NCBI GenBank assembly: GCA_944386415.1
Contig: CALXAY010000005.1
Coordinates: 3,439 to 67,438, forward strand
Origin: an uncultured Clostridia bacterium
GTDB taxonomy: Bacteria > Bacillota > Clostridia > TANB77 > CAG-508
DNA: 64,000 nucleotides
Reading direction: 5' to 3'
In this document: positions 43,748-58,212 of the stretch, one piece after another
Layout of the letters: every line of letters begins with the position of its first letter
Numbering within the stretch: position 1 is the first letter of the stretch
Notes under the pieces: model-generated
The model's input: the letters and a program-made list of their open reading frames with translations, nothing else
What the model was told of the DNA's origin: nothing
Databases searched by the model: none
Translations under genes and position numbers: made by a program

Positions 43748-44038
43748 ATGAGTACTTTTAGAGAAGTTAATGATGACATTTTAAGAGATTGGTTAAATTT
43801 TAGAGAGGAAACAATTTTTGGTAGACTTACCGAAGAAGATAAAAAACATCATATTTATTTTGATGAAATTTGTGAAAATATTTTGAAGAATGTACCTAAA
43901 CAGAATCAAAAATTTGTAAAGAAGCAATTAGATAAACTGGATAAGAATTTTATGGATTATCTTTGTTATTGGAATGAGAAGTATTATAGGAATGGATTTT
44001 GTGATGGAGTAGAATTGATTATTCATTCATTAGAATAA
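43748..44038 (+). CDS. small helical hypothetical protein (96 aa)
   Basis: RBS GGAGGT upstream. One of the few plus-strand genes. No motif recognised. Confidence 0.55.
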   Translation: MSTFREVNDDILRDWLNFREETIFGRLTEEDKKHHIYFDEICENILKNVPKQNQKFVKKQLDKLDKNFMDYLCYWNEKYYRNGFCDGVELIIHSLE

Positions 44039-44053
44039 TAGACAAATAAGTAA

Positions 44054-44090
44054 AAAGTGTAAAAATGTCAAAAAAACATTTTCACACTTT
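44054..44090. terminator. bidirectional terminator between convergent genes
   Basis: aaagtgtaaaaatg / tcaaaaaaa / cattttcacacttt (1 mismatch). Confidence 0.55.
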
Positions 44091-44094
44091 GCCT

Positions 44095-44676
44095 TTACTT
44101 TTTTTCTTGTTTATACATATCTATTGCATATGCAACATTAAAAGTAATCAAAATTATTGTAATAATTATTTCTGCACCTTTAATCAATGGATTATTCCAT
44201 GTACTATTTAGTATTAGTCTATATATTAGGGCTATTATAAATAAAGCAGGAAAAATAAATTTATAACTATAATAAACTATATTTTGTGTTATTGGATATT
44301 CATTTAAATAGTTTTTACCTTCTCTTCCAAAATTTCTACTTATGCTATTTGACAATTCTTCTTCTATTTTATGAATATATGGATAAGTTTTATCTATATA
44401 TGTATTAATTTGATAATACCTAACTACACAATATAACATACTTATCATAATAATTATTTGAACTGTATTAATACTAAAATAGAATCCCATTTTCCATTGC
44501 TCAATTAATAATTCAGATATTATATTAGTCATGCTATCTGGTCTTATTGATATTAAAAACAAGACAAAAATATGTAATAATATTATCACAAATAATTTAT
44601 TTCTTTTATTTTCTTGCTTTTTTGTCTCATTTACAGTCTCTTTATAGTGATCATATAAAATCTCTATATTACTCAT
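44095..44676 (-). CDS. small four-TM membrane protein, candidate effector coupled to the TIR-like gene
   Basis: Hydrophobic helices LFVIILLHIFVLFLISI, VQIIIMISMLYCVV, FIFPALFIIALIYRLIL, AEIIITIILITFNVAYAI. The start ATG overlaps the TIR-like stop (ATGA at 44676). Confidence 0.7.
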   Translation of the reverse strand: MSNIEILYDHYKETVNETKKQENKRNKLFVIILLHIFVLFLISIRPDSMTNIISELLIEQWKMGFYFSINTVQIIIMISMLYCVVRYYQINTYIDKTYPYIHKIEEELSNSISRNFGREGKNYLNEYPITQNIVYYSYKFIFPALFIIALIYRLILNSTWNNPLIKGAEIIITIILITFNVAYAIDMYKQEKK

Positions 44677-45107
44677 TATGCATTTTTCACCGCTTTCATA
44701 ATAGCGTCTTCACTAAATGAATATGCCCAACTTGCTCCACTACCAAGTAATTCTTCTGGTGATTCATATGTACTGTTGATTTTTATTGCAATTATTTTAT
44801 TTCCATTTTCTTTGCTTTTAGCAATTTCAAAATTTTGCCAATTTTTATAACCTATTAGTGCACTATCTTTATGTCTTTTATTTGCCTCTTTTCCGACTAT
44901 TACAATAGTATAATCAGCTTCATTAATTTTTCTAGTTAAAGCCCCTTTTATTGTTGGTATATTCCAACTATTTATTTCCTTGGTGGATTTATCATCAAAC
45001 TCGAATTCAAATTCACTATTTCCATTCCAAGCATCTAATAAATATTTATAGTTTCTATCATTTTCAAAGTCAAATGACACAAATATTTTTCTTTTACTCA
45101 TTTTCAT
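44676..45107 (-). CDS. ThsB-like TIR domain protein (DUF1863/MTH538 TIR-like)
   Basis: KIFVSFDFENDRNYKYLL, YTIVIVGKEA, NFEIAKSKENGNKIIAIKIN. These parallel the Bacillus ThsB segments RVFFSFHYQD / VTCVLIGSQT / VRYEIMKSIEKGNKIIGIHIN as I recall them. Confidence 0.75.
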   Translation of the reverse strand: MKMSKRKIFVSFDFENDRNYKYLLDAWNGNSEFEFEFDDKSTKEINSWNIPTIKGALTRKINEADYTIVIVGKEANKRHKDSALIGYKNWQNFEIAKSKENGNKIIAIKINSTYESPEELLGSGASWAYSFSEDAIMKAVKNA

Positions 45108-45225
45108 TACTTCCTCTCGTTTCTACATTTTTTGGTTGATAACTGTTTTGATGCATATCAATTTTTATTGGTGGGCATGTTGAATTATCATTACCATTAT
45201 TTAAATTATCCTTTTTTTCTTCCAT
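45094..45225 (-). CDS. unannotated 43-aa ORF bridging the TM-protein gene and the TIR-like gene
   Basis: MEEKKDNLNNGNDNSTCPPIKIDMHQNSYQPKNVETRGSNENE*. SD TAGGAGGTG lies 6 nt upstream and contains the stop of the preceding gene. Its own stop overlaps the TIR-like start by 14 nt. Confidence 0.5.
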   Translation of the reverse strand: MEEKKDNLNNGNDNSTCPPIKIDMHQNSYQPKNVETRGSNENE

Positions 45226-45237
45226 AACTTTCACCTC

Positions 45238-45810
45238 CTATATCATTTGGATAATCAAATTTATTCCTATTAGAACAATTTCAATTAATGTAATTATAGA
45301 TGCATAATTATATAAAGTATGTTTTTTATCAATTATTTTTTCATTATATTCAGCAATTTGTTTATAACTTTTTAACAATTCTTTATTTAAATCTATGTTT
45401 TTACTTTTATAATATATTTCTTCACAAATTGTAGTTGGTATATATTTAATATTGCGAGATTTTAAGCTATATATAAATAAGCATATAGAAATAATTGCTA
45501 AAATTAATATAATAAAATCCAGCAAAACTATAGAGCTATATTTTAATGCTTGCCCTATATTTTGAAATTGCATATTCAATATATTATTTACTTTTTCTGG
45601 ATTAACTAATAACAAAAGAACTGCTCCATGAAATGCTATGAAGAATCCATTTTTATTATCAATATTTTGACTTCTTTCATAATATTGATAATAATTGCTT
45701 TTTACTATATCTAGTATTTCCTTTATATTTTTTTCTTCATTTTCATTCTCATCATTTTTTTCTATTTCTTCTTGACTATCTACTTTTACTTCTTTTTTTA
45801 AATTATCCAT
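45238..45810 (-). CDS. multi-TM membrane protein (possibly Pycsar-effector/DUF5706-like)
   Basis: Acidic N-terminus, then YYQYYERSQNIDNKNGFFIAFHGAVLLLLV, IVLLDFIILILAIISICLFIY and ASIITLIEIVLIGINLIIQMI. Start placed at the ATG at 45810 behind GGAGG. Confidence 0.6.
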   Translation of the reverse strand: MDNLKKEVKVDSQEEIEKNDENENEEKNIKEILDIVKSNYYQYYERSQNIDNKNGFFIAFHGAVLLLLVNPEKVNNILNMQFQNIGQALKYSSIVLLDFIILILAIISICLFIYSLKSRNIKYIPTTICEEIYYKSKNIDLNKELLKSYKQIAEYNEKIIDKKHTLYNYASIITLIEIVLIGINLIIQMI

Positions 45811-45837
45811 ATTAGCCTCCATCTTAACATACATGTA

Positions 45838-47073
45838 TTACAATATTTTATCTTTCTCAAGTAACCAATCTAATACATTTATCTTCTTTATTCCATCAAA
45901 ATCAGCATCTAAATCATCATCTAATGTCAAAATATATTTAGGATAATTATCATTTATTTTCTTTAAAGGTGTTAGTTCTCTATCTAAAATTTTATTTTCT
46001 TCTTCACCTTCTGCTCTTGTTGTCAATGCAACTTGGTAATAAACTGTATTTTCAGGCTTTTTAGCAACAAAATCGACTTCTAATTCGTCATATTTTCCTA
46101 TATATACATCATATCCTCGTCTTAGCAATTCAAGATACACAACATTTTCTAATATATGTCCCATATCTCTACCAGAACCTTGACCTAACATATAATATCT
46201 TAGTCCTATATCTACTGCATAGTATTTTTCTTGTGTTTTTAAATATTCTTTTCCTTTTATGTCATACCTATTAGCTTTAAATATTAAATAGCTATCTATA
46301 AGTGCATCTACATAATTTGAAATTGTATTGTATGATGAATTCTTTTCTACACCTTCAATATTATCGCTTATGCTTTTCATACTAGTTCTATTTCCTATAT
46401 TATCATATAAATATTTTGTAACTCTTTCTAATACGTTTTTATCTGTTATTCCTTTTCTTTGCATCACATCTTTAAATAAAATTGTATTGTATATACCATC
46501 TAAAAACATATTGATATTTTCCGGATTTATTTTATATAGCTCTACTGCTTGAGGAAAAGAACTATATCTTAAATAATCTCTAAACTTTCTTGATATATCT
46601 GTTTTATCTTCAAAAGCAGATACATACTCTTTAAACGATAATGGTAACATTTTTATTTCAATATATCTTCCTGTAAGTAATGTAGCTAATTCTGATGATA
46701 ATAAATAAGCATTTGAGCCTGTTATATATAAGTCCACATCTTTATTTATAAATAAGCTGTCTACTGTCTTTTCAAATTCATTTACATTTTGAATTTCATC
46801 TAAAAATACATACATCTTTTTTCCTTTTAACAATTTTGCTTTTATATGTTCATATAATTTTTTTCTATCTTGTAATTCTTCATAATCAGCATTTTCAAAA
46901 TTTATAGATATTATTTGATTATCTTCTACTCCATTATCTCTTAAATAGTCTTGGTATATTTCTAATAATGTTGATTTTCCACATCTTCTAATTCCTGTTA
47001 TTACTTTTATTATTTGTTGATCTTTGAAATTCTTTAATATAGATAAATAATTATCTCTATTTATTCTTTCCAT
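45838..47073 (-). CDS. AAA_14/DUF4143-family ATPase (COG1373-like)
   Basis: Walker A GIRRCGKST, Walker B YVFLDEIQ. The C-terminal ENVVYLELLRRGYDVY..ELEVDFVAKK resembles a restriction-endonuclease-like fold. Confidence 0.8.
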   Translation of the reverse strand: MERINRDNYLSILKNFKDQQIIKVITGIRRCGKSTLLEIYQDYLRDNGVEDNQIISINFENADYEELQDRKKLYEHIKAKLLKGKKMYVFLDEIQNVNEFEKTVDSLFINKDVDLYITGSNAYLLSSELATLLTGRYIEIKMLPLSFKEYVSAFEDKTDISRKFRDYLRYSSFPQAVELYKINPENINMFLDGIYNTILFKDVMQRKGITDKNVLERVTKYLYDNIGNRTSMKSISDNIEGVEKNSSYNTISNYVDALIDSYLIFKANRYDIKGKEYLKTQEKYYAVDIGLRYYMLGQGSGRDMGHILENVVYLELLRRGYDVYIGKYDELEVDFVAKKPENTVYYQVALTTRAEGEEENKILDRELTPLKKINDNYPKYILTLDDDLDADFDGIKKINVLDWLLEKDKIL

Positions 47074-47214
47074 AGAATCTCCTCCTAACTATAATAATTA
47101 TACTATCTTTTAGTATTATAGTCAAGTCTTTTCAAAATCATGAAAAAACTTTGTAATTTTATAAACTTTTTTCAGTTCAATTATATTTAATACTAATTAT
47201 TATATTTTAACATA

Positions 47215-47602: not shown

Positions 47603-48397
47603 TTAAACTTTTATTCCTTTTTTATTAAACATTCTAATTCCATTATCTTCTTGTAAAAAAATTGCTATATTATATGTGCTCCTCTCGCCTTTCATTAAAA
47701 TTTTTTCTATCATTTCTTTCGTTGTTCTTGTATTAGTTGTTAAAAATAAATTTATTTTTCCTCCTGTTTTCTGTGCTCTTTCAAAAGCTTCTCCTATTTT
47801 ATTCAATAATTTAGGACTATATATTCTATTATTTACTTTTTCACTTTTATCTCTATATACATATATTGTATCTAAATTTCTTTTTGATTCTGGAATTTGT
47901 TCTTTTTTTATCTCATATGTATCTGATATTATTAAATTACATTCCCTAAGATTATTCGAATCCATTATATTACTATAATCAATATATGCTTCAACATCAT
48001 CTTCTTCTATTTCGTCTGGTATAATTTCAAACATTTTATATTTTACTATTTTAAATATTATATTATAAGGTTTTCTTATTAATGATATTTTATTATATCC
48101 TAACATTTTAGCTAAGCAATACCATATTATATGTTTACTACCATATACATCCCCTTTTAAAAATTCTGTTTTAAAAACGTGTCTATTTAGGATAAATATT
48201 CCAATCCATATCATGATAGAAGCAACTATTTTTTGATATGTAGTAATCTTCCACTCATTTCCAAACAAAGTTTCGTATATATTTATTATCATATTTCTAA
48301 TAAATTCAGGACATAATAATGGTATAATAATTACTATTATCGGAATTATTATTTGTATTATTATACTTATTATCAATTTCATTTTCTTTTTTACCAT
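47603..48397 (-). CDS. CBASS membrane effector: N-terminal 2 TM helices plus C-terminal alpha/beta domain (single SAVED/CARF-like unit?)
   Basis: TM helices LIISIIIQIIIPIIVIIIPLL and IVASIMIWIGIFIL. The C-terminal part reads CNLIISDTYEI..DTIYVYRD..KINLFLTTNTRTTKEMIEKIL. Starts 4 nt after cap3. Confidence 0.65.
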   Translation of the reverse strand: MVKKKMKLIISIIIQIIIPIIVIIIPLLCPEFIRNMIINIYETLFGNEWKITTYQKIVASIMIWIGIFILNRHVFKTEFLKGDVYGSKHIIWYCLAKMLGYNKISLIRKPYNIIFKIVKYKMFEIIPDEIEEDDVEAYIDYSNIMDSNNLRECNLIISDTYEIKKEQIPESKRNLDTIYVYRDKSEKVNNRIYSPKLLNKIGEAFERAQKTGGKINLFLTTNTRTTKEMIEKILMKGERSTYNIAIFLQEDNGIRMFNKKGIKV

Positions 48398-48401
48398 ATT
48401 T

Positions 48402-48878
48402 TTAATATAACCTTTCTATCTTTAAATTACATTTCCAAATTCTAATTTCTTTCGTTCCAACAATAACATTAAATAAGTCTCCACCATCTTTTTGATACCA
48501 AATTTTTTTCCAGTTTTTTTTATCTAGCAAAGATGGTTCAGGTATATTTTCTGGATGTGTATGCCACTCTCCAACATAAGCATATATTCCATTATTCTCT
48601 TTATAAATTTTATTATAATACTCAATATGTCCTTTATCTTTTCTATAAAATCTATATCTTTTTCTTATATCTTTTTCCATTGGATATGTTGCATACTCTA
48701 TTATTAAATTTCCATTATTTTTTTCTTCTCTCCCTATTAAAATCCCTCCTGATTCAGGCTCTTTTCCATTTTGTCTGTATTGTTTAAATAGATTCATAAT
48801 TTCTTCTGTAATTTTTACCTTCCTTCCTGAATCATTAAAAACTATATCATTGGAATTTTCCACAAAACTCACATTCAT
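48402..48878 (-). CDS. cap3: Cap3, JAB/JAMM isopeptidase
   Basis: ESGGILIG plus a perfect HxHx7Sx2D (HTHPENIPEPSLLD). Confidence 0.9.
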   Translation of the reverse strand: MNVSFVENSNDIVFNDSGRKVKITEEIMNLFKQYRQNGKEPESGGILIGREEKNNGNLIIEYATYPMEKDIRKRYRFYRKDKGHIEYYNKIYKENNGIYAYVGEWHTHPENIPEPSLLDKKNWKKIWYQKDGGDLFNVIVGTKEIRIWKCNLKIERLY

Positions 48879-50569
48879 TTTGCATAAATTTCTCTCCTTT
48901 TAGTATTTTTATATTGTCGCTTTGTTTATTAAATCTATTTGAAGTTACATATCCTAATTTCTTAAAATAGTAATCTGTTCCCTTTACGGAAAATAATATA
49001 TTATATTCTAATCCTTCATAGAATATCTTTTTCATAAGATCTATTGCATATGTTACTATTCTTAATGAGTGAGTAGAACTGTACGGTAAATATTCCGAAC
49101 CACAACCTTGCATTTGAACTGTATAATTTTGTCCATTTTTACAATATGATGTTCTGTCAAATATTTCATCTTTATCATCTAATTTAAATAGGCATTCGTA
49201 GCACCCTACATGTTGATTATTAGTTATTAATATATGATTGCCTATATCTAGTACTTCATTCCATAAATACATTATTACACTTTTTATATTAAATTTATGT
49301 ATATATTCGTTTAACCATCTATTAATATTATGGTTTCCAATAGCAGATATAATTAAGTCATAGTTATTTAAATCTATAGAACCATCCTCTAATGCTTCTT
49401 CAATTGTTGTTTGTGTTCCGACTATATTTATATGTGGAATATTTTTTCTTATATACTCACATATTGCCTCTGATTTATATCTTCCTACATATTCCATTCC
49501 TAAAACATGCCTATAAATATTTACCTCTTTTAATACATCATCATCTATAACTTCGATATTTTTTATCCCTGATTTAGCAATTTGTTCAATTAGATAACCT
49601 CCAATAGATCCACATCCGATTACTAATATTTTTTTTGATCTTAATTCAGTATCTCCTCCACCTCGTATGCATAACTGCTTTGGATTTATAGAATCTATGC
49701 TCAATAAACTAAATTTAGTATTATTCAAAAAAGTTATTTTTTCTTGATCAAATGTATATCTAGCTAATCTAATTCCTATGTTTACACTTTTGCCATTTGG
49801 TTGTTCAATTGTAAATATTAAAAATTTGTATTTACCTTTTTCTGATAAGTACTTTCTTATTATCTCTTCTTCAGAACGACATTTATTTAACAAAAAATTA
49901 ACAAATTCTATCTTAATTTCTCTCCTCCAATCTGGTGGATATATATAATCTTTGCTTTTTATATACAAAGAAAGTCCATTATATATAGTAAATCTGCTCT
50001 TATACATCGCAAAATCATTTTCATTATCTGAAATTAACATATTATCAGTTTCAACATTATAAATTTTATTCTTTATTCTGGTCGGTTTATATTTAACTGC
50101 ACATTTTATATTCGTAACTTTTCCTTCTATATTACTTAATAATTTGGCATACTTAACATTTTTAGATAAAATTACATATGAATTAAATTCATTTATAAAA
50201 TCCTCTACATTTTTTCTATCTATTCCATTAGTTAATATTTCTTTCATTCTTTGTAAGCAATTACATAATATACCAATGAAATCTTTTTCAATAAGTATTC
50301 CCTCTAATTGAAACAAGCATATTTTCCCGTTTTTCTTCTATATGTGGAATATAAGGTATCTCTGCATAATTAACAACATATATGTCTATTAGATTTCTAT
50401 CCCAATCTTTAGGAATACAGATCTTTATTGTAATTTGTATCTCTTTGTATGTCATTTTTGAATTTAAAATCAACTTGTAAAGTTTATTGTTATATAATGT
50501 TTCACTAGTAAAAGATACATCACTTAAATAATCTATATTTTTTAATACTTGTAAAATTTTATCTTTCAT
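48847..50569 (-). CDS. cap2: Cap2, E2-E1 fusion; split into 93-aa and 489-aa ORFs by one extra A as assembled
   Basis: E1: ILVIGCGSIGGYLIEQIAKSGIKNIEVIDDD..NIYRH, GCYEC. E2: ..IPYIPHIEE, then the frame switches. Removing one A from the A5 run (plus-strand T 50330..50334) gives PHIEENGKICLFQLEG with the catalytic Cys codon at 50317..50319. Confidence 0.85.
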
Positions 50570-51609
50570 TTTATTCCTGAAGCACTACTTGGAGGGATAA
50601 AGTTTTTTTGTGTTTTTGATTCATCTTTCTTTTCTGGTATTTCAAAATCATCTCCAAATATTTGATTTAATTTTTTGCACTGTTCAATAATATCAACTTC
50701 ATCTTTTACTATTATCAAATCATCATATAACTTACAAATTTTATTTCTGAAATTATTCATTTGATTTAATGTCATCTTACTAAACACATCTGTATATGGT
50801 TGAACTGGTAAATCCAGTGATATAGAATATTTACTTTCACTACTTTCTAAATCATATTTAAGTATAAATTTACTTTTTACTTTTGTAATAAAATCAATCA
50901 ATGCATTTAAATCATTATAAACATATTTTTCCTCTAAATAATCATATTCCTTTGATGGTGAGAACAAATTATATGCTAACAATGTAATTCCTATTCCTGG
51001 GACTTCATTATTTCCATCGGAACTAAAATTTAAATTTTTCCACCTTTTTAAATATCGTATTATCCTTTTATACTGCTCTTTATCTTCTCCACGAAATCTA
51101 TTTTCTATTTCATTTATTAGTCCTAATGGATCAGCTACTTCCCATTTTATATTTTCAGCTTTTGCAAATTCTTTTCCTTTTGCTAGATATAATTGGCTTT
51201 CTTTATTTTCTTTATCTTCATAAGTATATGTAACAATATCTATATGATAAGCCGTTTCTCCATCTTTTTTGTATGTAATTGTTACACATGGTGTTTTAAT
51301 TTGTGCACCATAGTCAGTATAATTTTTCAAAATATCCCTAATTTGCTTTTTTAATGTTAGAGGATCTTCATAATCATTTTTATTCACATTAAATCTTAGT
51401 CCTACATCTATATCGTAATCTTTGTCTATAGGTTTCACTTCCGTTCCCATTCTATAACTACCTTGTCCAAATTCTTCAAAACTTGGTAAATCTTCGTCAG
51501 CTCTAAGTTTATCTAATATTTTGTTTCTTTTTTCTCTTAATTCATCTAATTTTGTTGCTGATAACCTTATGTTCTCATTAAATTTTTTGAATTGATTTTG
51601 TAAGCTCAT
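50566..51609 (-). CDS. CD-NTase (cGAS/DncV-like nucleotidyltransferase)
   Basis: GQGSYRMGTEVKPIDKDYDIDVGL (GS...DxD) and third-Asp context AYHIDIV. ATGA overlap with cap2. Confidence 0.85.
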   Translation of the reverse strand: MSLQNQFKKFNENIRLSATKLDELREKRNKILDKLRADEDLPSFEEFGQGSYRMGTEVKPIDKDYDIDVGLRFNVNKNDYEDPLTLKKQIRDILKNYTDYGAQIKTPCVTITYKKDGETAYHIDIVTYTYEDKENKESQLYLAKGKEFAKAENIKWEVADPLGLINEIENRFRGEDKEQYKRIIRYLKRWKNLNFSSDGNNEVPGIGITLLAYNLFSPSKEYDYLEEKYVYNDLNALIDFITKVKSKFILKYDLESSESKYSISLDLPVQPYTDVFSKMTLNQMNNFRNKICKLYDDLIIVKDEVDIIEQCKKLNQIFGDDFEIPEKKDESKTQKNFIPPSSASGIK

Positions 51610-51650: not shown

Positions 51651-52238
51651 TTATAAACTATCAAGACATTTCTTTATAAAAACTTGCATGTTAGTTCTAT
51701 TTGATTTTTCCAACTTGTCCATTAAATTTTTAACTTGTTGTATATCTGATTCTCCTTTATTGATTGGAAATAAATTTCTATATAACCTGCCTTTTTCTTT
51801 ATTATTTGGTAATTTATCTATTAGTTTTAAATCTAACAATACTTCATCTAAATTATTTTTATTCCAGATTGGAACTATGTAAGGATTTAACCAATGATTT
51901 TTAAACATTTCTCCTGAGATGTATTTTTGTTTTCTATCCTCACTGGTATCATCCAAATCCATTATTGGCATTAATGAAAAATTTTTTAATATTCCATTTT
52001 CTTCTTCCACAATATATCTTTTGTTAAATTCTCTTTTATTTTTAAAAATATTATTTCCTAATACAGTCATTAAACTATCTATTTGTATGCTCGTTTTTCC
52101 ATTACTTTCTGCATATATTTCTATAGGCAAATGTAAGTTACTTTTTATATGCTCTGCTAACAATAATTCACTTTTTCCATGTGCTATTACAATCCCTTTA
52201 CAGTAATTAGGTTTCTTCACCATCAACATTTTCCTCAT
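51651..52238 (-). CDS. small TOPRIM-like protein (RloB/DUF4276-like)
   Basis: IVIAHGKSELLLAEHI (G.sE element) and PIMDLDD (DxD). Overlaps the ATPase gene. Confidence 0.55.
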   Translation of the reverse strand: MRKMLMVKKPNYCKGIVIAHGKSELLLAEHIKSNLHLPIEIYAESNGKTSIQIDSLMTVLGNNIFKNKREFNKRYIVEEENGILKNFSLMPIMDLDDTSEDRKQKYISGEMFKNHWLNPYIVPIWNKNNLDEVLLDLKLIDKLPNNKEKGRLYRNLFPINKGESDIQQVKNLMDKLEKSNRTNMQVFIKKCLDSL

Positions 52239-53574
52239 TATTTTCTGAATCTTCTAGAGCATACTTAATTTCTTCAAAATCAATATAGTTTGTTGTTGGA
52301 ATTCCACCAAAAACACCTTTAAAATACAAATCACGAGCATTATTATTTTTTTGTATTTTAATTCCATATTCTTTTATAGAATTTATCGTTTTGTTTCCAT
52401 TATAGTCTGTTGATAATATATAAATATTTTCCTTTGGTAATATTTCTAATAGAAGTGTATTATGTGTTGTTATTATCAATTGTCCTGTTATCTCGTCCTT
52501 TATTGACATTATAATATTTTTCATTAATACATCATGTATTCCATTATCTATTTCATCTAATATAACTGTTTCTCCTAACAATGAACCTATTATTGTATCA
52601 AATTGATTTAGTATTCTTCTTGTTCCATCTGATTCAAGTCTAGAAGGTATAGACTTTATTTGTCCTCCTATCATTTTATTAAAATATAATTCATAATGAA
52701 TTCTGTCTTCTTTTTCATTTATTTCGTATTTGACTTCTTTTATATCTGCATATGCTTGTGTAAAAAAGATGTTTAAAACATTTTCATATTTCTTTATTTC
52801 AGGTAACTTATCTTTTTTTACAATTCCTTTTTGTATATTATTTAATTTCCTTACTTTTACAAAACCATCTGGTATTATTTTTAAAGCACCTTTATCAACA
52901 TGCACTGTCATTAACCAAATTCTATCTATTACTTCTATAATATTTTTAGATATATTATTATCTATATAGTCTTTATTTTTCTCTATTGTCTCAAATGATA
53001 ATAATGATAGAAAAGTATATTTCCCCCAATATTTATCAATTCCATCGACTAATTCTTCATTGTATTTTTCATTAATAAATATATTCTTATTTAAGTTTTT
53101 AGTAATTTTGTTATTTTCTTTATTTATTTGAAATAGATATGCTCTTTGTTTTCCCGCCATATAATATAGTTTTTCTTCTATAATTTCATCATCAAATTTT
53201 ATATAATAAAATCCATCTTTATTATTAATTTTGAAACCATATTCAATTTCAGTTGCTTCTTCTTCATCCAACATTCTATATTCTTTTAGGTTAAATGATA
53301 ATTGAAAAATTTGTCTTATTTCAGTTGGTAACTGATCTGACATTTCTTCTTGTATTTTCCAAAACTCTTTTGGCATCTTATTCATTGCAATATCTGTTGC
53401 TCTTGACATTATTGATTGTTGTAATAATTTAAATAATTCTACAATATTAGTTTTTCCACTTCCATTTTCACCATAAATAGAGATAAATTGATTTGTCTTA
53501 GTTTTTGTTTTATTTAAATTAAATTCAATATCTTTCAAAGATTTAAAATTTTTAGCTTTTACATATGTGAACAT
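52207..53574 (-). CDS. ABC/SMC-like AAA ATPase (AAA_15/AAA_21 type)
   Basis: Walker A GENGSGKTN, signature-like ESDGTRR, Walker B VILDEIDNGIH, H-loop TTHN. Confidence 0.8.
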   Translation of the reverse strand: MFTYVKAKNFKSLKDIEFNLNKTKTKTNQFISIYGENGSGKTNIVELFKLLQQSIMSRATDIAMNKMPKEFWKIQEEMSDQLPTEIRQIFQLSFNLKEYRMLDEEEATEIEYGFKINNKDGFYYIKFDDEIIEEKLYYMAGKQRAYLFQINKENNKITKNLNKNIFINEKYNEELVDGIDKYWGKYTFLSLLSFETIEKNKDYIDNNISKNIIEVIDRIWLMTVHVDKGALKIIPDGFVKVRKLNNIQKGIVKKDKLPEIKKYENVLNIFFTQAYADIKEVKYEINEKEDRIHYELYFNKMIGGQIKSIPSRLESDGTRRILNQFDTIIGSLLGETVILDEIDNGIHDVLMKNIIMSIKDEITGQLIITTHNTLLLEILPKENIYILSTDYNGNKTINSIKEYGIKIQKNNNARDLYFKGVFGGIPTTNYIDFEEIKYALEDSENNEENVDGEET

Positions 53575-54004
53575 TTTATCAACCTCCTATAATATTGTAT
53601 CATTTTTGAACTTTTCTATACTATTTTACATTATTTTTTAATATAAGTCAATTGTTTTTGATACATTTTGTATGTTTTTTATTAAACTTTGTATAATATT
53701 TTATGCTGTTTTTATAAAAATAGTACATTTTTTATATTATTTACTATGTTTCATTTAAATTAAAATAAGCAGACTTTTATGCCTGCTTGGTGTGTAGATT
53801 AGGAATTGAACCAAATGCTCTAATCTATATTTTTTAGTATTATATCTACTTAATATCACATTTGTTTCTACACATATACAAGAGCTAACACCATGTGAAA
53901 ATATTTTCATAGACTTCATCTCTTCATAAATTATTGTAAAATTACTGCAATCATTATTTCAAAGACATTTATCTATAATATAGAATCAAATCTATCAATT
54001 CACT

Positions 54005-54268
54005 TCAATTCATAGATTTGATTATTGAATGCTTTTGTAAACATATTTTTACATTTTTAGTATAATCTGCATAATCCCCTTCATCCAAAGTTTCCTTTAA
54101 AGCCTGTAATATTCCTTTATTGACTTTCACTTGTATAAGAATTCCGGGTGTCAATTCATCTTCATATGCAATAATATTTCTTCCAATTTTTACTCAATAT
54201 GTATTAATTGGAGTTTTATACACACGTATATTTTTACTCTCACTTACTAATTTATGCGTTTTTTTCAT
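54005..54268 (-). pseudogene. 87-codon ORF interrupted by an in-frame TGA, 2 nt downstream of the 1313-aa gene
   Basis: MKKTHKLVSESKNIRVYKTPINTY-TGA(54194..54196)-VKIGRNIIAYEDELTPGILIQVKVNKGILQALKETLDEGDYADYTKNVKICLQKHSIIKSMN*. Confidence 0.45.
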
Positions 54269-54270
54269 TT

Positions 54271-57200
54271 CTATTTTATTTTAGAATCTATATATTTCCA
54301 TTCGTCTTCTGTAATATTCCATTTTTCGCAAAGATATTTATCTGTATAAATTCTATCATACTTTCCTAAATCAGGTACAAAGCAAAATTTATTTCTTAAT
54401 ACATCTTGAGAAACAACCGCTTGTAGAAGTAAAAACCTTACTGTTTTAGTAAATAAATATGACTTGAAATTTTTAATTTCCTCTTCAGTATCAAGAGCTC
54501 CTGCTACAATAAATGATTCTGTACAACATTCACCTGGTTTTGCAATATTAGTATTACCATCGTAATAAAAACCAATCGGCTTAGTAAAGTCTGTTTGCCC
54601 TGCAATTGGAGATCTCGGAACTAATAATTTCCATTTATTTAATAATTTATTTTCATCATGTACATCTTTCGGATCAGCATATTTTTTTCCAATTCTTTGT
54701 ATAAACCAACAAGGAACACCTTTGTCCTTAGGTCTATAATTTGTTGGTAAACCAAATGGTTTTTGAGGTGAAACTACATTTTCAAGTGTTTTACCATTTT
54801 TTTGTTTACTAAAAACTTTTCTAATAATTGGAATAGCTTGATTAAACCTTACAAATGTATTAAATTCATTTAAGTTCCTATAAGAAGAATATTTAACATT
54901 GTTTATGACATTAGTAACTTCACATTCTTCTTTATTGCCCTTATCCCACAAGAAATAATTAACACCTCCTGCAATATCTGCAGAATCAAAAACATCTCTT
55001 GTATTTGGATAATCAACGATCTTAGTTAAACATGTATCATTTAACATATCTTTCCTGAATTCATTCAATCCCATTCCACCTGAAAACCATCTTGATGGTG
55101 TAATCATACTTATATATTTAGAATTTATTGATTTTGACATATTTACAAATAAATTGTATATTGGTTTAGCTTGTGTTCCATAACCTCCAGTCATTTCTTG
55201 ATATGGAGGATTTCCTACTACTGCATCAAATTTCATTTGTACTCCTTTCTTATTCCAACTATTGGGGCTCAATACATAATTTACAACTTTAGTCATATCT
55301 TCCTCTAATTTAGTTGCAATATCTTCTATTAGTAAAATATTGACATTATATTTTTTATATCCTGCTAATGTTCTCTTAACAATTTGCATTGCCATCTTAG
55401 TTCTGCAAATTATATAAATATTATTTTCCAATGTCTCTCTCCAAAAATCTTCATTTTTATCTTCTGTATAATCTCGTTTATTATAATTTAATAACTTATT
55501 CATATAAATGCTATAAGAACAATATAGAGCATACAACCCAGTCTTTGCATTTATTTCTAATATTTTAACATTATTATTTTCGAATAAGTCTTTAGTTACA
55601 TTTCCATTGTTTATAAATCTAGGCTCATTGTCTGGATAATTAAAATTGTATCCTCCTAAACAATCTCCTAAATGCATATTCACTGTTTTCCAAGGAGTAA
55701 GTACAGTTTCCTTATCTGGATTTTTAAACATTGAAAATATTTCAGCTAACTTTTTTATTCTTTCTTTTATAGGTAATGTATCTGCATATAATGTTGAATT
55801 TCTTATTTGTCTACCAGCTTCTATAAATATTTCATTATCATAATATTTAGAAAATTTCTTAAAAATTTCTTTAGTTACGCCACTTGGCATAAATTCATTC
55901 CATGACTTATCATCCACTAATTCAATCAAATTTTGACTGTCAATATCTTTCTTGATTTCAATATCTGCTCCATATATTAGTAATGGTATTCTTATTGATA
56001 TTCCTCTTAATATTGATATTGCTGTTGAAGCTTGTTTTTTCTTTTCTTTTTCTTCTTCAAGTAATCTTTTTTCTTCTTCAGTTAATTCTTTTTTATTTTT
56101 CTTTTTAGCTTCTTCCAATTTTTCATATTCTTCATTATTAAAGCCTTGATTATTTATATCAATACTATCAATTCTTTTTGTTTGCTTACTAACCCCAACG
56201 ATTTTTCTTAGATTTTCAAATTCTTCCAAATCTATTTCATCTAATTTAAGTAAATTATCATTATAAATACTTTTATCATCAAATCCATTATTCACTACTC
56301 TTTGTGCCACTGCCTTTTTCAATTGTCTTAACATTTGAGTAACATCATACTTGATCATTTTAGAGCCATCAATTCCTATAATTGGACAAAAATTTAAAAA
56401 ATGGCTCATTATTACTTTAGATTGAATTGAACCAGCCTTTACTGAAAGTTGCCCAGCTTGTGCAGCCATTTTTAAAGTTCTATCTGGAGCAAAATCAAAT
56501 ACATAACATTTTTCTTTAATTTTGCCACCTATTTTAGCTGGCGTTTGTACTCTAAATATTGTCTGTAAATAGCTAGAGGCTGATGTAGAATATGAACCAG
56601 AAAGCATAAAAACAGCCGTCCATTCTGGAATACTAACGCCCGTAGTTAATCTTCCGCATGAAATCGTAATAGTATAAGTTTCTTCTGGCTTATCTGTTAT
56701 TGCTTTTCTCACTTTTTTTAAAGCCTCTTCATATCTTTCTTCTTCATCACCATCTCCTGCAACATTAACAATTTTAAACATTCCAGAGCCAAATACTAAA
56801 TGTTCTTTTAACAATTTACTTAAAGCCTTTGCCTCTCTAACTCCTGGTACCATCCATAATGAGTGTCTAAAATATTCAATATACTCTTTTGTTGAATATG
56901 GATAATTAGAATTTGGATCTTGTTTTGATAATAAATTCAAAAATTTATTTATATCATCCTTATGCACAAAATCTCCCTTCTCATATCCTTGTGGAATAGG
57001 TTTTCTATCAATTTCTAATTCTCCTGTCCATGTTCTAAAAAACTCTCTAAAATTAAATGCATTATCTAATACATCCATATATTTAGGCAACACTTTATCT
57101 AAATAATATGTATAAATATTAAGTTGAGGTAAATCACTATATGGATTAGGATCACCAAAATGTTCTATATCTGTATCCCATTCTAATTTCGCTGATTGTT

Positions 57201-58212
57201 CCATAATGTAATCCCATGTGTAGATTTCATCATCTTTAAAATCACTTAATAAATTAAAAGGTGTGCCAGACAACATTAACACTTTTGTTTTATGATTATT
57301 ATGTGTTTTTACTATATTATCAATTGTCTTTTCTCCCAAACTAGTTTTTGTTCCCTCATGTGCCTCATCAATAACTACTAAATCCCAATCATTATTAAAA
57401 ATCTGTTCGTCCTTATGAAAGTTACCACCGACTTCCGTTGAACCCCTTAAATCTTGGATCGAAGCAAAATACACAAACGGATTATTGCTATCAAGCAAAT
57501 TCTCTATTGTTTCTCCAACAGTTTTAGAACCATATTTATACTCACCATCTTTTGAAAAAATTTTATTAAAATCTTCAAACCATCCCATATTCACTACTGG
57601 TCTGTGTGTAATTATTATTGTTTTCTTATATTTTTGTCTCTTAACTAATTCTAAAGCTGTTAATGTTTTACCAAAACGCATCTTTGCATTCCAAAGCATA
57701 ATGTTGCTTCTTTTAAAAGTTTCAATTGTTTTCTTTATAGCCTCTTCCTGTTCAGGTCTAAATATGATTGGATCTTTCTTATAAGAAATTTGTTGTGCAG
57801 ATAAGGATCTTTTATTCTCCTTAACAGCTTTAATTGCTTTTTTTGCAGTCATTAAATCTACACAAAACCATTCATTTTGTTTGTTTTCTGTATCAAAATA
57901 ATATCTTTCAATTCCAGACCTTAGTAAAACATTATGAACTTTTGTATCTTTAAATGAATTACCATTATTATCAACCGCCAACTCTGTATGTAGTAATTCA
58001 TAACTTATACCTGCAGTTGACGTATAACTATTGATTCTATTTTTAGCTGCCCTATTTAGGTCTTCAGAATCAGGTAGTAATTCATCCAAAGGCTTATTAG
58101 TATGAATTGTCGCCTCTCCAATTTTCAATTTGCCTCTATGTATTTCATCATTAATTCTAAAAATATAAATCAACTTATAACTAAATGTTGAAGTAAATTT
58201 ATTTATTCCCAT
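54271..58212 (-). CDS. GIY-YIG(T5orf172-like)-SF2 helicase-gamma N6-adenine methyltransferase fusion (type ISP-like restriction-modification enzyme)
   Basis: N-terminus YKLIYIFRIND..GKLKIGEAT..EWFCV. Helicase motifs AKMRFGKT, VVIDEAHEG, LSGTP, QTIFRVQTP. MTase motif I ILEINAKTGLY and motif IV VVGNPPYQ, followed by a roughly 330-aa C-terminal region. Confidence 0.8.
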   Translation of the reverse strand: MGINKFTSTFSYKLIYIFRINDEIHRGKLKIGEATIHTNKPLDELLPDSEDLNRAAKNRINSYTSTAGISYELLHTELAVDNNGNSFKDTKVHNVLLRSGIERYYFDTENKQNEWFCVDLMTAKKAIKAVKENKRSLSAQQISYKKDPIIFRPEQEEAIKKTIETFKRSNIMLWNAKMRFGKTLTALELVKRQKYKKTIIITHRPVVNMGWFEDFNKIFSKDGEYKYGSKTVGETIENLLDSNNPFVYFASIQDLRGSTEVGGNFHKDEQIFNNDWDLVVIDEAHEGTKTSLGEKTIDNIVKTHNNHKTKVLMLSGTPFNLLSDFKDDEIYTWDYIMEQSAKLEWDTDIEHFGDPNPYSDLPQLNIYTYYLDKVLPKYMDVLDNAFNFREFFRTWTGELEIDRKPIPQGYEKGDFVHKDDINKFLNLLSKQDPNSNYPYSTKEYIEYFRHSLWMVPGVREAKALSKLLKEHLVFGSGMFKIVNVAGDGDEEERYEEALKKVRKAITDKPEETYTITISCGRLTTGVSIPEWTAVFMLSGSYSTSASSYLQTIFRVQTPAKIGGKIKEKCYVFDFAPDRTLKMAAQAGQLSVKAGSIQSKVIMSHFLNFCPIIGIDGSKMIKYDVTQMLRQLKKAVAQRVVNNGFDDKSIYNDNLLKLDEIDLEEFENLRKIVGVSKQTKRIDSIDINNQGFNNEEYEKLEEAKKKNKKELTEEEKRLLEEEKEKKKQASTAISILRGISIRIPLLIYGADIEIKKDIDSQNLIELVDDKSWNEFMPSGVTKEIFKKFSKYYDNEIFIEAGRQIRNSTLYADTLPIKERIKKLAEIFSMFKNPDKETVLTPWKTVNMHLGDCLGGYNFNYPDNEPRFINNGNVTKDLFENNNVKILEINAKTGLYALYCSYSIYMNKLLNYNKRDYTEDKNEDFWRETLENNIYIICRTKMAMQIVKRTLAGYKKYNVNILLIEDIATKLEEDMTKVVNYVLSPNSWNKKGVQMKFDAVVGNPPYQEMTGGYGTQAKPIYNLFVNMSKSINSKYISMITPSRWFSGGMGLNEFRKDMLNDTCLTKIVDYPNTRDVFDSADIAGGVNYFLWDKGNKEECEVTNVINNVKYSSYRNLNEFNTFVRFNQAIPIIRKVFSKQKNGKTLENVVSPQKPFGLPTNYRPKDKGVPCWFIQRIGKKYADPKDVHDENKLLNKWKLLVPRSPIAGQTDFTKPIGFYYDGNTNIAKPGECCTESFIVAGALDTEEEIKNFKSYLFTKTVRFLLLQAVVSQDVLRNKFCFVPDLGKYDRIYTDKYLCEKWNITEDEWKYIDSKIK

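Follow-up and report, generated by a model that had tools for sequence, protein, structure and literature searches.

On the minus strand of a contig from an uncultured Clostridia bacterium (CALXAY010000005.1), two overlapping genes encode a ThsB-like TIR protein of 143 amino acids (aa) and a 193-aa protein with four transmembrane (TM) helices. Together the two genes probably constitute a minimal Thoeris-type anti-phage signalling system, in which a messenger made by the TIR protein would be read by the four-TM protein, acting as the effector. The stretch of DNA analysed, 64,000 nucleotides (nt) of that contig, is called the window here, and positions are counted from its first letter. The TIR gene, for a predicted phage sensor and signal synthase, lies at 44676..45107, and that for the four-TM protein, a predicted signal-activated membrane effector, at 44095..44676. 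Both open reading frames (ORFs) are on the minus strand, which had been left unstated in the first-pass annotation of this DNA, made from the letters alone.

The pairing itself is not new. In a preprint of 3 December 2025 (bioRxiv 10.64898/2025.12.03.692087), Yirmiya et al. searched defence islands for systems that signal through TIR proteins. They described 29 putative Thoeris types, of which V to XI were validated, and gave the effectors new names. Their Table S1 contains 33 TIRs with a putative effector labelled "4TM", all belonging to TIR sequence cluster 2727267812. Judged by sequence comparison, the window holds another copy of this predicted "4TM" Thoeris type and not a new architecture. 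The published entry is a catalogue line alone. What was a bare label can now be replaced by a defined protein family with its hidden Markov model (HMM), a predicted topology and a list of near-invariant residues that can serve as targets for mutagenesis.

A ThsB-type TIR protein

The 143-aa product contains the segments KIFVSFDFEND, YTIVIVGKEA and NFEIAKSKENGNKIIAIKIN, and the first-pass annotation had read it as a ThsB-type TIR with a Glu at the catalytic place. Profile searches agree with that placement. The protein passes the cut-off of the Pfam family ThsB_TIR (PF08937; E = 2.7e-11, with 44.2 bits where 21.2 are required) and matches several ThsB models of PADLOC, the best of them ThsB1 (2.9e-12), while a profile of the TIR family matches the solved ThsB structures 8v6t, 9b7d and 6lhy at about 1e-7. 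The PADLOC model PDC-M50B also matches the TIR protein; the four-TM protein matches no PDC-M50 model. The structural comparison points the same way: when the AlphaFold2 (AF2) model of the TIR protein (predicted local distance difference test, pLDDT, 84) is searched with Foldseek, crystal structures of ThsB head the list, with the best template-modelling score going to EcThsB2 (8v6t), and after them come the TIRs of SPARTA (short prokaryotic Argonaute, TIR-APAZ) and SARM1.

The putative catalytic residue is Glu94, whose codon (GAA), read from the sequence, lies at 44826..44828 on the minus strand. In the profile alignment it falls on the Glu in the RYEI motif of Bacillus cereus ThsB, which we take to be the catalytic Glu85 of that enzyme, and it is invariant in two alignments of relatives (16 and 20 sequences). 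By these comparisons, the 143-aa protein is a ThsB-type TIR in which the predicted catalytic Glu is conserved.

Relatives of the TIR protein at 50-67% identity are found in many bacterial phyla, in groups of the candidate phyla radiation (CPR) and in methanogenic archaea. It is the only one of the cassette proteins to match PHROGs (phrog_6988). Matches in the phage collection include Staphylococcus phage X2, where the TIR gene is part of a type VII (DUF4231 + TIR) prophage cassette, and Streptococcus phage Javan199, where the neighbouring genes are unannotated.

The TIR and four-TM genes form a conserved pair

In the window, the stop codon of the TIR gene (44676..44678) runs into the ATG of the four-TM gene (44674..44676), giving the sequence TAATG at 44674..44678 on the minus strand with base 44676 common to both genes, just as the first-pass annotation had described. 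The overlap suggests that translation of the two genes is coupled. A terminator-like hairpin and T-run (44054..44090, minus strand), consisting of a 16-pair stem and a T-rich tail, begins 5 nt past the stop codon of the four-TM gene. Three terminator-like sites were observed within 4 kb, against 0.4 expected, and the one behind the four-TM gene is the sole one of them on the minus strand.

The partnership extends far beyond the window. When the neighbours of related TIR genes were surveyed, the HMM of the four-TM family matched the gene adjoining the TIR in 68 of 80 species genomes, from Bacillota, Bacteroidota, Pseudomonadota, Actinomycetota, Chloroflexota, CPR phyla, Methanothrix and others. 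The spacing is tight: in 65 of the 67 other genomes where both ORFs were called, the N-terminus of the effector is encoded at -16 to +53 nt relative to the stop codon of the TIR gene. The 12 exceptions comprise four loci cut by a contig end or an insertion, five in which the TIR has a coupled upstream gene for a protein with an HD motif, and four orphan TIRs; the classes overlap, as one of the HD-motif cases is also counted among the four cut loci. The first-pass annotation had proposed asking the question from the other side, whether homologues of the 193-aa protein sit next to a TIR, and they do: a TIR gene adjoins the four-TM gene in 23 of 25 species genomes. Relatives of the four-TM protein at 69% identity are encoded in the same gene order as in the window. 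In the case of a relative at 39% identity, the four-TM gene comes first and the TIR gene second, beside a type I restriction-modification (R-M) system and without the genes that lie upstream in the window; the loci with the reversed order are L005-L008. The pairing of TIR and four-TM families is far beyond chance and spans phyla.

The family does not confine itself to one kind of TIR. In two loci the effector gene is flanked by genes for two different ThsB-like TIRs, forming TIR-4TM-TIR triplets (L024:5004-6524 and L027:5007-6527). Elsewhere the four-TM gene adjoins genes for TIR proteins outside the ThsB family: an 865-aa LRR-Roc-COR-TIR_2 protein (L122:2992-6191), a 764-aa protein with two TIR_2 domains and TPR/Sel1 repeats (L113:720-3663), and two consecutive TIR_2 proteins (L124:2986-4919). 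The partners thus fall into four architectures: short ThsB, TIR_2, TPR-TIR and LRR-Roc-COR-TIR.

What is missing from these loci is a counterpart of ThsA. Neither in the cassette nor in the other ORFs of at least 110 aa between 43.7 and 63.8 kb did domain scans with Pfam and PADLOC detect a SIR2, SLOG, Macro or protease domain, and in every related locus inspected the annotated neighbours likewise lack a SIR2, SLOG or Macro gene. Both results uphold the first-pass annotation, which had noted no nucleotide-sensing or protease domain within the cassette and had considered that a ThsA-like gene found consistently in the same element would speak against its reading. Since the two families co-occur, the TIR protein falls in the ThsB family and no ThsA recurs, the two genes are best regarded as encoding a genuine TIR-effector pair.

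Correspondence to the catalogued "4TM" type

The label "4TM" was tied to the four-TM family through identical TIRs and the genes downstream of them. Three of the "4TM" TIRs of Table S1 are 100% identical to TIRs in our survey, from Blautia producta DSM 2950 (L044) and from loci L038 and L062, and in each case the gene downstream matches the effector HMM (1.8e-64, 1.9e-60 and 4.1e-57, respectively). Since all three are trailed by a member of the four-TM family, the "4TM" of Yirmiya et al. and the family described here are, by this comparison, the same. In addition, the triplets of L024 and L027 match paired gene identifiers in Table S1, and the window TIR aligns over its full length with ten "4TM" TIRs of that table at 38-64% identity (tblastn). 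The first-pass annotation knew of no described system with this architecture, a statement that can no longer stand.

Between the catalogued type and the cassette in the window there is no structural difference: the TIR family is the same, and so is the two-gene layout. The copy in the window comes from a gut Clostridium that has not been cultured and is new in sequence, and here the cassette is preceded by two further small genes, for a PycTM-like protein and for a conserved micro-ORF, which are considered below.

The four-TM protein family

The first-pass annotation saw in the 193-aa protein four TM helices and a loop, and it was right. Hydrophobic segments lie at about residues 28-45, 66-85, 133-156 and 166-187, and the loop between TM2 and TM3 has 43 residues (88-130). 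The AF2 model, an unrefined monomer, is all-helical (pLDDT 79.9). Lys and Arg are distributed unevenly, with six at the N-terminus, five in the TM2-TM3 loop, three at the C-terminus, and one and none in the other two loops. By the positive-inside rule, this distribution predicts a topology in which both termini are in the cytoplasm, and with them the two conserved segments discussed next.

Conservation was measured over 148 representatives of the family. One conserved segment is the N-terminal helix (residues 1-27, encoded at 44596..44676 on the minus strand), with the motif ILYDHYK...R25 and six Lys or Arg. It is helical in the AF2 model, is predicted to be cytoplasmic, and carries H10 (97%), Y11 (99%) and R25 (100%). 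The other is the TM2-TM3 loop (residues 86-130; 44287..44421, minus strand), also predicted to be cytoplasmic, with the motifs RYYQ, Y-x-Y-I-H and REGKxYLxxYP in addition to E105. In this segment Y87 and E105 are conserved in 100% of the representatives, Y98 and Y123 in 99%, Y100, R118 and E119 in 97%, P128 in 93%, Y127 in 92% and Q89 in 91%. All strongly conserved residues fall in one or the other of these segments except Y138 and P143 (at least 96%) and Y183 (89-93%). We propose that the segments may be two halves of one ligand site. Such a surface, aromatic and basic and with two invariant Glu, would suit the binding of an adenine nucleotide.

The family is large and has no model in the domain databases. 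In an exhaustive profile search, 811 clusters (50% identity) passed E <= 1e-3 and 596 passed E <= 1e-10, the members being almost all 185-250 aa in length. A word-indexed search for close relatives gave 84 clusters, none with a Pfam domain. The family as such gave no significant match to a Pfam, PADLOC or NCBIfam model (38 members were scanned with Pfam), and the plasmid and phage collections contain no homologue. Foldseek, which the first-pass annotation had suggested running on models of both proteins and which led from the TIR model to ThsB, found no match in the PDB for the four-TM model at E <= 0.001; the best-ranked structures, at E > 0.2, came from designed helical bundles and from alpha-pore-forming toxins.

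Some candidate relationships were tried and set aside. The Pfam family 8xMP (PF24838) matched at 17.5 bits (E = 0.0039) against a gathering threshold of 30, and three of 38 members matched it at E <= 0.01; a search of the literature for 8xMP, "octameric membrane protein" or PF24838 brought up nothing relevant, and the candidate was dropped. To the eye, motifs of the family resemble those of SLATT proteins, but hhalign gives homology a probability of 0.4% (with a SLATT profile made from three sequences only). Homology to the neighbouring PycTM-like protein was rejected as well (hhalign probability 8.7%).

One family member, and probably a second, carries a further domain. The first is a 399-aa four-TM effector (L109:3001-4200) fused to a C-terminal domain resembling phosphoribosyltransferases (a weak UPRTase match, E = 0.0088), and the second (P0301, 477 aa) probably has the putAbiC domain that turned up once among the members scanned with Pfam.

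Proposed mechanism and direction of signalling

In the system that we propose, the 143-aa TIR protein would detect infection, and Glu94 would serve in converting NAD+ to a second messenger derived from ADP-ribose. Canonical cyclic ADP-ribose (cADPR) is the leading candidate for the messenger, because the nearest TIRs that have been studied by experiment make it: three SLATT-associated TIRs made canonical cADPR upon infection (Yirmiya et al.). The four-TM effector would bind the messenger at its cytoplasmic face, through H10, Y11 and R25 together with Y87, Q89, Y98, Y100, E105, R118, E119, Y123 and Y127. It would then oligomerise or open, so that the membrane is breached or depolarised, and the damage would halt replication of the phage by abortive infection. 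For this cassette, it is by inference that we speak of defence, of a particular signal, of direct binding of the ligand and of disruption of the membrane.

The first-pass annotation had offered two readings, the one just given, in which a TIR signal is sensed by a small membrane effector, and another, in which a TIR NADase is held or activated at the membrane. The former has the better support. The latter turns the logic around: the four-TM protein would be the sensor or anchor, responding to perturbation of the membrane or entry of phage DNA and activating the TIR, and the cell would die from depletion of NAD+ with no diffusible signal. There is precedent for this, as bacterial TIRs act as NADase effectors in the cyclic oligonucleotide-based antiphage signalling system (CBASS), in the pyrimidine cyclase system for antiphage resistance (Pycsar) and in SPARTA, cases that Yirmiya et al. 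excluded, and the TIR model resembles the TIRs of SPARTA and SARM1 as well as those of ThsB. The tight translational coupling would suit a stoichiometric complex, and the four-TM protein has no known ligand-binding fold. However, the TIR in question is a stand-alone ThsB-type protein from the same cluster as TIRs that make cADPR on infection.

The choice of partners also argues against reversed logic. TIRs of the same sequence cluster are found with SLATT proteins in Bacillus and in prophages of staphylococci, with an HD-motif protein elsewhere, and with the four-TM protein in the loci described here, and such swapping is as expected of a protein that produces a signal. Furthermore, where domains that look like sensors are present (LRR-Roc-COR, TPR/Sel1), it is the TIR, not the four-TM protein, that carries them as a fusion. 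Finally, the conserved residues of the four-TM protein are cytoplasmic by prediction, aromatic and basic, and not periplasmic. Taking these observations together, we consider it improbable that the four-TM protein controls the TIR, and we prefer the reading in which the TIR protein signals to the four-TM effector.

The HD-motif protein deserves mention in its own right. It has about 400 aa, carries the motif QRDHYxH...FHDIAYP and has no Pfam match. Its gene is translationally coupled upstream of TIRs of the same clade (L051:3773-5991, L068:3803-5429, L076:3761-5429, L079:3757-5432 and L081:4058-5426), in Omnitrophota, in relatives of Methanosarcina and in a metagenome-assembled genome (MAG) of Negativicutes. 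The HD-motif gene is sometimes accompanied by a second ThsB-like TIR (L068: 6762-7316). Probably the HD-motif protein is an alternative effector.

Several considerations weigh against the mechanism proposed. With no nucleotide-binding domain, PDB fold or SLATT homology to go by, binding of a ligand is inferred solely from conservation. The topology of the effector is a prediction, drawn from the positive-inside rule and from a model of the monomer without refinement. The signal could differ from cADPR, since the window TIR is 41-43% identical to type VII TIRs and has a 10-residue insertion relative to them. Nor is a simple two-component logic guaranteed, given that some TIR products, in type IX and in one type V system, failed to activate their cognate effectors (10.64898/2025.12.03.692087). 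Moreover, none of the 30 operons assayed by Yirmiya et al. (Table S2) is of the "4TM" type, and no later paper validating it was found in the literature.

One might go further and suppose that the four-TM family is a novel class of ligand-gated effectors in the membrane, with a cytoplasmic site rich in Tyr and Arg, and that it possibly responds to a messenger new to Thoeris. The messenger could be new because the TIR differs from those of type VII by a conserved insertion and at about 58% of residues. On the sequences at hand we hold this stronger proposal to be unlikely. Once validated, the pair would amount to a new numbered Thoeris type, with one effector serving at least four TIR sensor architectures.

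The matter is of some general interest: Yirmiya et al. estimate that about 8% of prokaryotic genomes have TIR signalling of the Thoeris type, yet most of the predicted Thoeris effector types, "4TM" among them, remain predictions. One effector family here serves TIR sensor proteins that are very different from one another, LRR-Roc-COR-TIR included. Two questions can now be put to the test: how a helical membrane protein of about 190 residues without a known binding domain would recognise a nucleotide, and which cADPR isomer or other product comes from the branch of TIRs to which that of the window belongs.

Relation to validated systems

In general terms the locus looks like a Thoeris system, combining a ThsB-type TIR with its Glu, a conserved operon partner and a location in a defence island. 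Among the types validated by Yirmiya et al., those whose effector consists of membrane segments only are V (DUF2270), VII (SLATT) and X (ion channel).

Nearest by its TIRs is type VII, in which a ThsB is encoded with the SLATT/DUF4231 protein ThsH and the signal is cADPR. As in the window, the operon has two genes and the effector is small and confined to the membrane, the TIRs (from Bacillus) belong to the same sequence cluster as that of the window, and the logic is presumed to be alike, a TIR signal leading to membrane damage. The type VII system of B. licheniformis, a verified system with its TIR in cluster 2727267812, is one in which supplying cADPR in the medium is toxic to the cells that carry it (10.64898/2025.12.03.692087). 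The effectors differ, however. ThsH is a two-TM protein of 135-156 aa with DUF4231 and SLATT_1, encoded upstream of the TIR, whereas that of the window has four TM helices and 193 aa. Genuine type VII effectors match DUF4231 at 1e-21 to 1e-25, whereas the four-TM family has no SLATT match. The TIRs differ too, in that the insertion of the window protein (KRHKDSALIGY) is not found in type VII.

Type V (ThsB with the DUF2270 three-TM protein ThsF; signal 3'cADPR) offers another parallel, a bare multi-TM effector without a known ligand-binding domain. The ligand site proposed for it consists of positively charged cytoplasmic pockets between protomers (Yirmiya et al.), to which the conserved cytoplasmic residues of the window effector may be compared. 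Nonetheless, type V effectors have three TM helices instead of four, the TIRs belong to different clusters, and none of the 38 members of the four-TM family that were scanned matches DUF2270 (PF10028) at E <= 0.01.

The other resemblances are more distant. Type II (ThsB with a TM-Macro protein; signal histidine-ADP-ribose, His-ADPR) also combines a TIR with an effector embedded in the membrane, but there the effector has a Macro domain, whereas that of the window lacks any soluble domain, and neither the window protein nor the 38 family members gave a Macro match. Type I (ThsB with the SIR2-SLOG protein ThsA; signal 3'cADPR) shares the ThsB-type TIR with its catalytic Glu; SIR2 and SLOG were not found in the cassette, in the island ORFs scanned or among the annotated neighbours of related loci. 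CBASS and Pycsar likewise have small multi-TM proteins (S-4TM, SUa-2TM and PycTM) as effectors that nucleotide messengers activate, but their partner is a cyclase, whereas the partner of the four-TM family is a TIR, and the family has no significant match to the S-4TM, SUa-2TM or PycTM models.

Upstream genes

The cassette stands at the end of a string of five ORFs on the minus strand, which overlap or are separated by gaps of no more than 3 nt. The first gene of the string encodes a 411-aa AAA_14/DUF4143 ATPase (45838..47073), which matches the PADLOC candidate PDC-S01 at 1.2e-153. It is followed by the gene for a 198-aa TM protein of the PycTM family (45238..45834), whose PADLOC match to PycTM is weak (4.8e-6) but whose homologues carry PF18967, then by a conserved micro-ORF of 46 aa (45094..45234) that overlaps the start of the TIR gene by 14 nt and has the motif STCPPI.I..HQNSY.PKN, and then by the TIR and four-TM genes. 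The three upstream ORFs, tightly packed and on the same strand, went unmentioned in the first-pass annotation. NCBIfam has no match for any of the five proteins.

The arrangement raises the question of whether all five genes act as one system in this Clostridium lineage, for example with two membrane effectors responding to one TIR signal. Apart from the packing of the genes, one can point to the position of the best minus-strand promoter-like match (47125..47097), before the ATPase gene, and of the sole minus-strand terminator, behind the four-TM gene. Also, the block of PycTM-like gene, micro-ORF, TIR gene and four-TM gene recurs in relatives, with proteins 57-85% identical to those of the window, and the PycTM-like gene and micro-ORF precede the cassette in the window's sub-lineage. 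Many homologues of the PycTM-like protein, moreover, are encoded on contigs equal in length to those that carry four-TM and TIR homologues. The promoter-like matches, however, occur at chance level in this AT-rich DNA (window G+C, 26%), with 38 found against 39 expected from shuffled sequence. Among the 79 other genomes of the TIR-side survey, the upstream genes are found in the two closest relatives alone (L015 and L016). As for the ATPase gene, L015 and L001-L004, the closest relatives, are alone in having it; L016, L098-L100 and all others lack it.

The PycTM-like gene and the micro-ORF are also found together without the TIR-4TM cassette (L101-L104), directly behind HsdR (as at L101:3501-4157) or behind a pair of genes for an AAA+ protein and an S8 peptidase (as at L103:3501-4153). 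Both proteins are conserved in the contexts with the cassette and in those without it. The TM protein has 168-198 aa and the micro-ORF 38-46 aa, and the two directly follow the 3' end of defence genes of several kinds, in the window that of the AAA_14 ATPase; no Pycsar cyclase was found near them. They are, on this comparison, a separate module, apparently a neighbour in the island rather than core to the system. A five-gene system seems to us a poor prospect, and the upstream genes were rejected as core components on two grounds, that the PycTM-like pair occurs without the cassette and that the ATPase is limited to the closest relatives. The two-gene reading, with the TIR protein as signal producer and the four-TM protein as effector, is retained.

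Genomic surroundings

The window is nearly identical to contig CAKNJR010000002.1, from a MAG of an uncultured Clostridium. Upstream of the five-gene string, on the same strand, lies a complete type II CBASS (47603..51609), recognised in the Pfam and PADLOC scans, with a SMODS/DncV-like cyclase (50566..51609), an E1/E2 Cap2-like protein (48847..50316), a JAB Cap3-like protein (48402..48878) and a SUa-2TM effector (47603..48397). The minus-strand genes beyond it, in 51651..58212, are likely further defence genes. Among them is one for an AAA_21 ATPase (52207..53574), which overlaps a downstream ORF of 195 aa without a family match, and upstream of it one for an R-M protein of 1313 aa (54271..58212) in which a ResIII helicase is fused to an Eco57I-type methylase. 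IstB-like and replisome-organiser genes are also present in the window, and a fructose phosphotransferase system operon lies beside the island. The surroundings of the cassette are a defence island on DNA resembling that of mobile elements, the CBASS, the PDC-S01 candidate and the R-M fusion placing the cassette there in a qualitative sense.

One might ask whether the pair is instead a housekeeping module of the membrane, or one akin to a toxin-antitoxin, that lies on mobile DNA by chance. Genes for TnpV, integrases and recombinases near related loci, like the IstB-like and replisome-organiser genes of the window, would fit such a passenger. Against this, the catalytic Glu has been retained, Yirmiya et al. 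found the TIR cluster to be statistically enriched beside defence genes, and the neighbours of related loci are repeatedly of that kind (type I R-M, CRISPR-Cas, KAP NTPase and AbiE genes, in addition to the CBASS of the window). Furthermore, the patchy spread of the pair over bacteria and archaea points to horizontal transfer. A role outside immunity is, in our estimation, very improbable.

A trace of the mobility of the cassette may lie next to it. An ORF of 96 aa (43748..44038, plus strand), convergent with the cassette, is kept (57% identity) beside TnpV in L001-L004 and also in L017. Its conservation suggests that the cassette travels with a small remnant of a mobile element.

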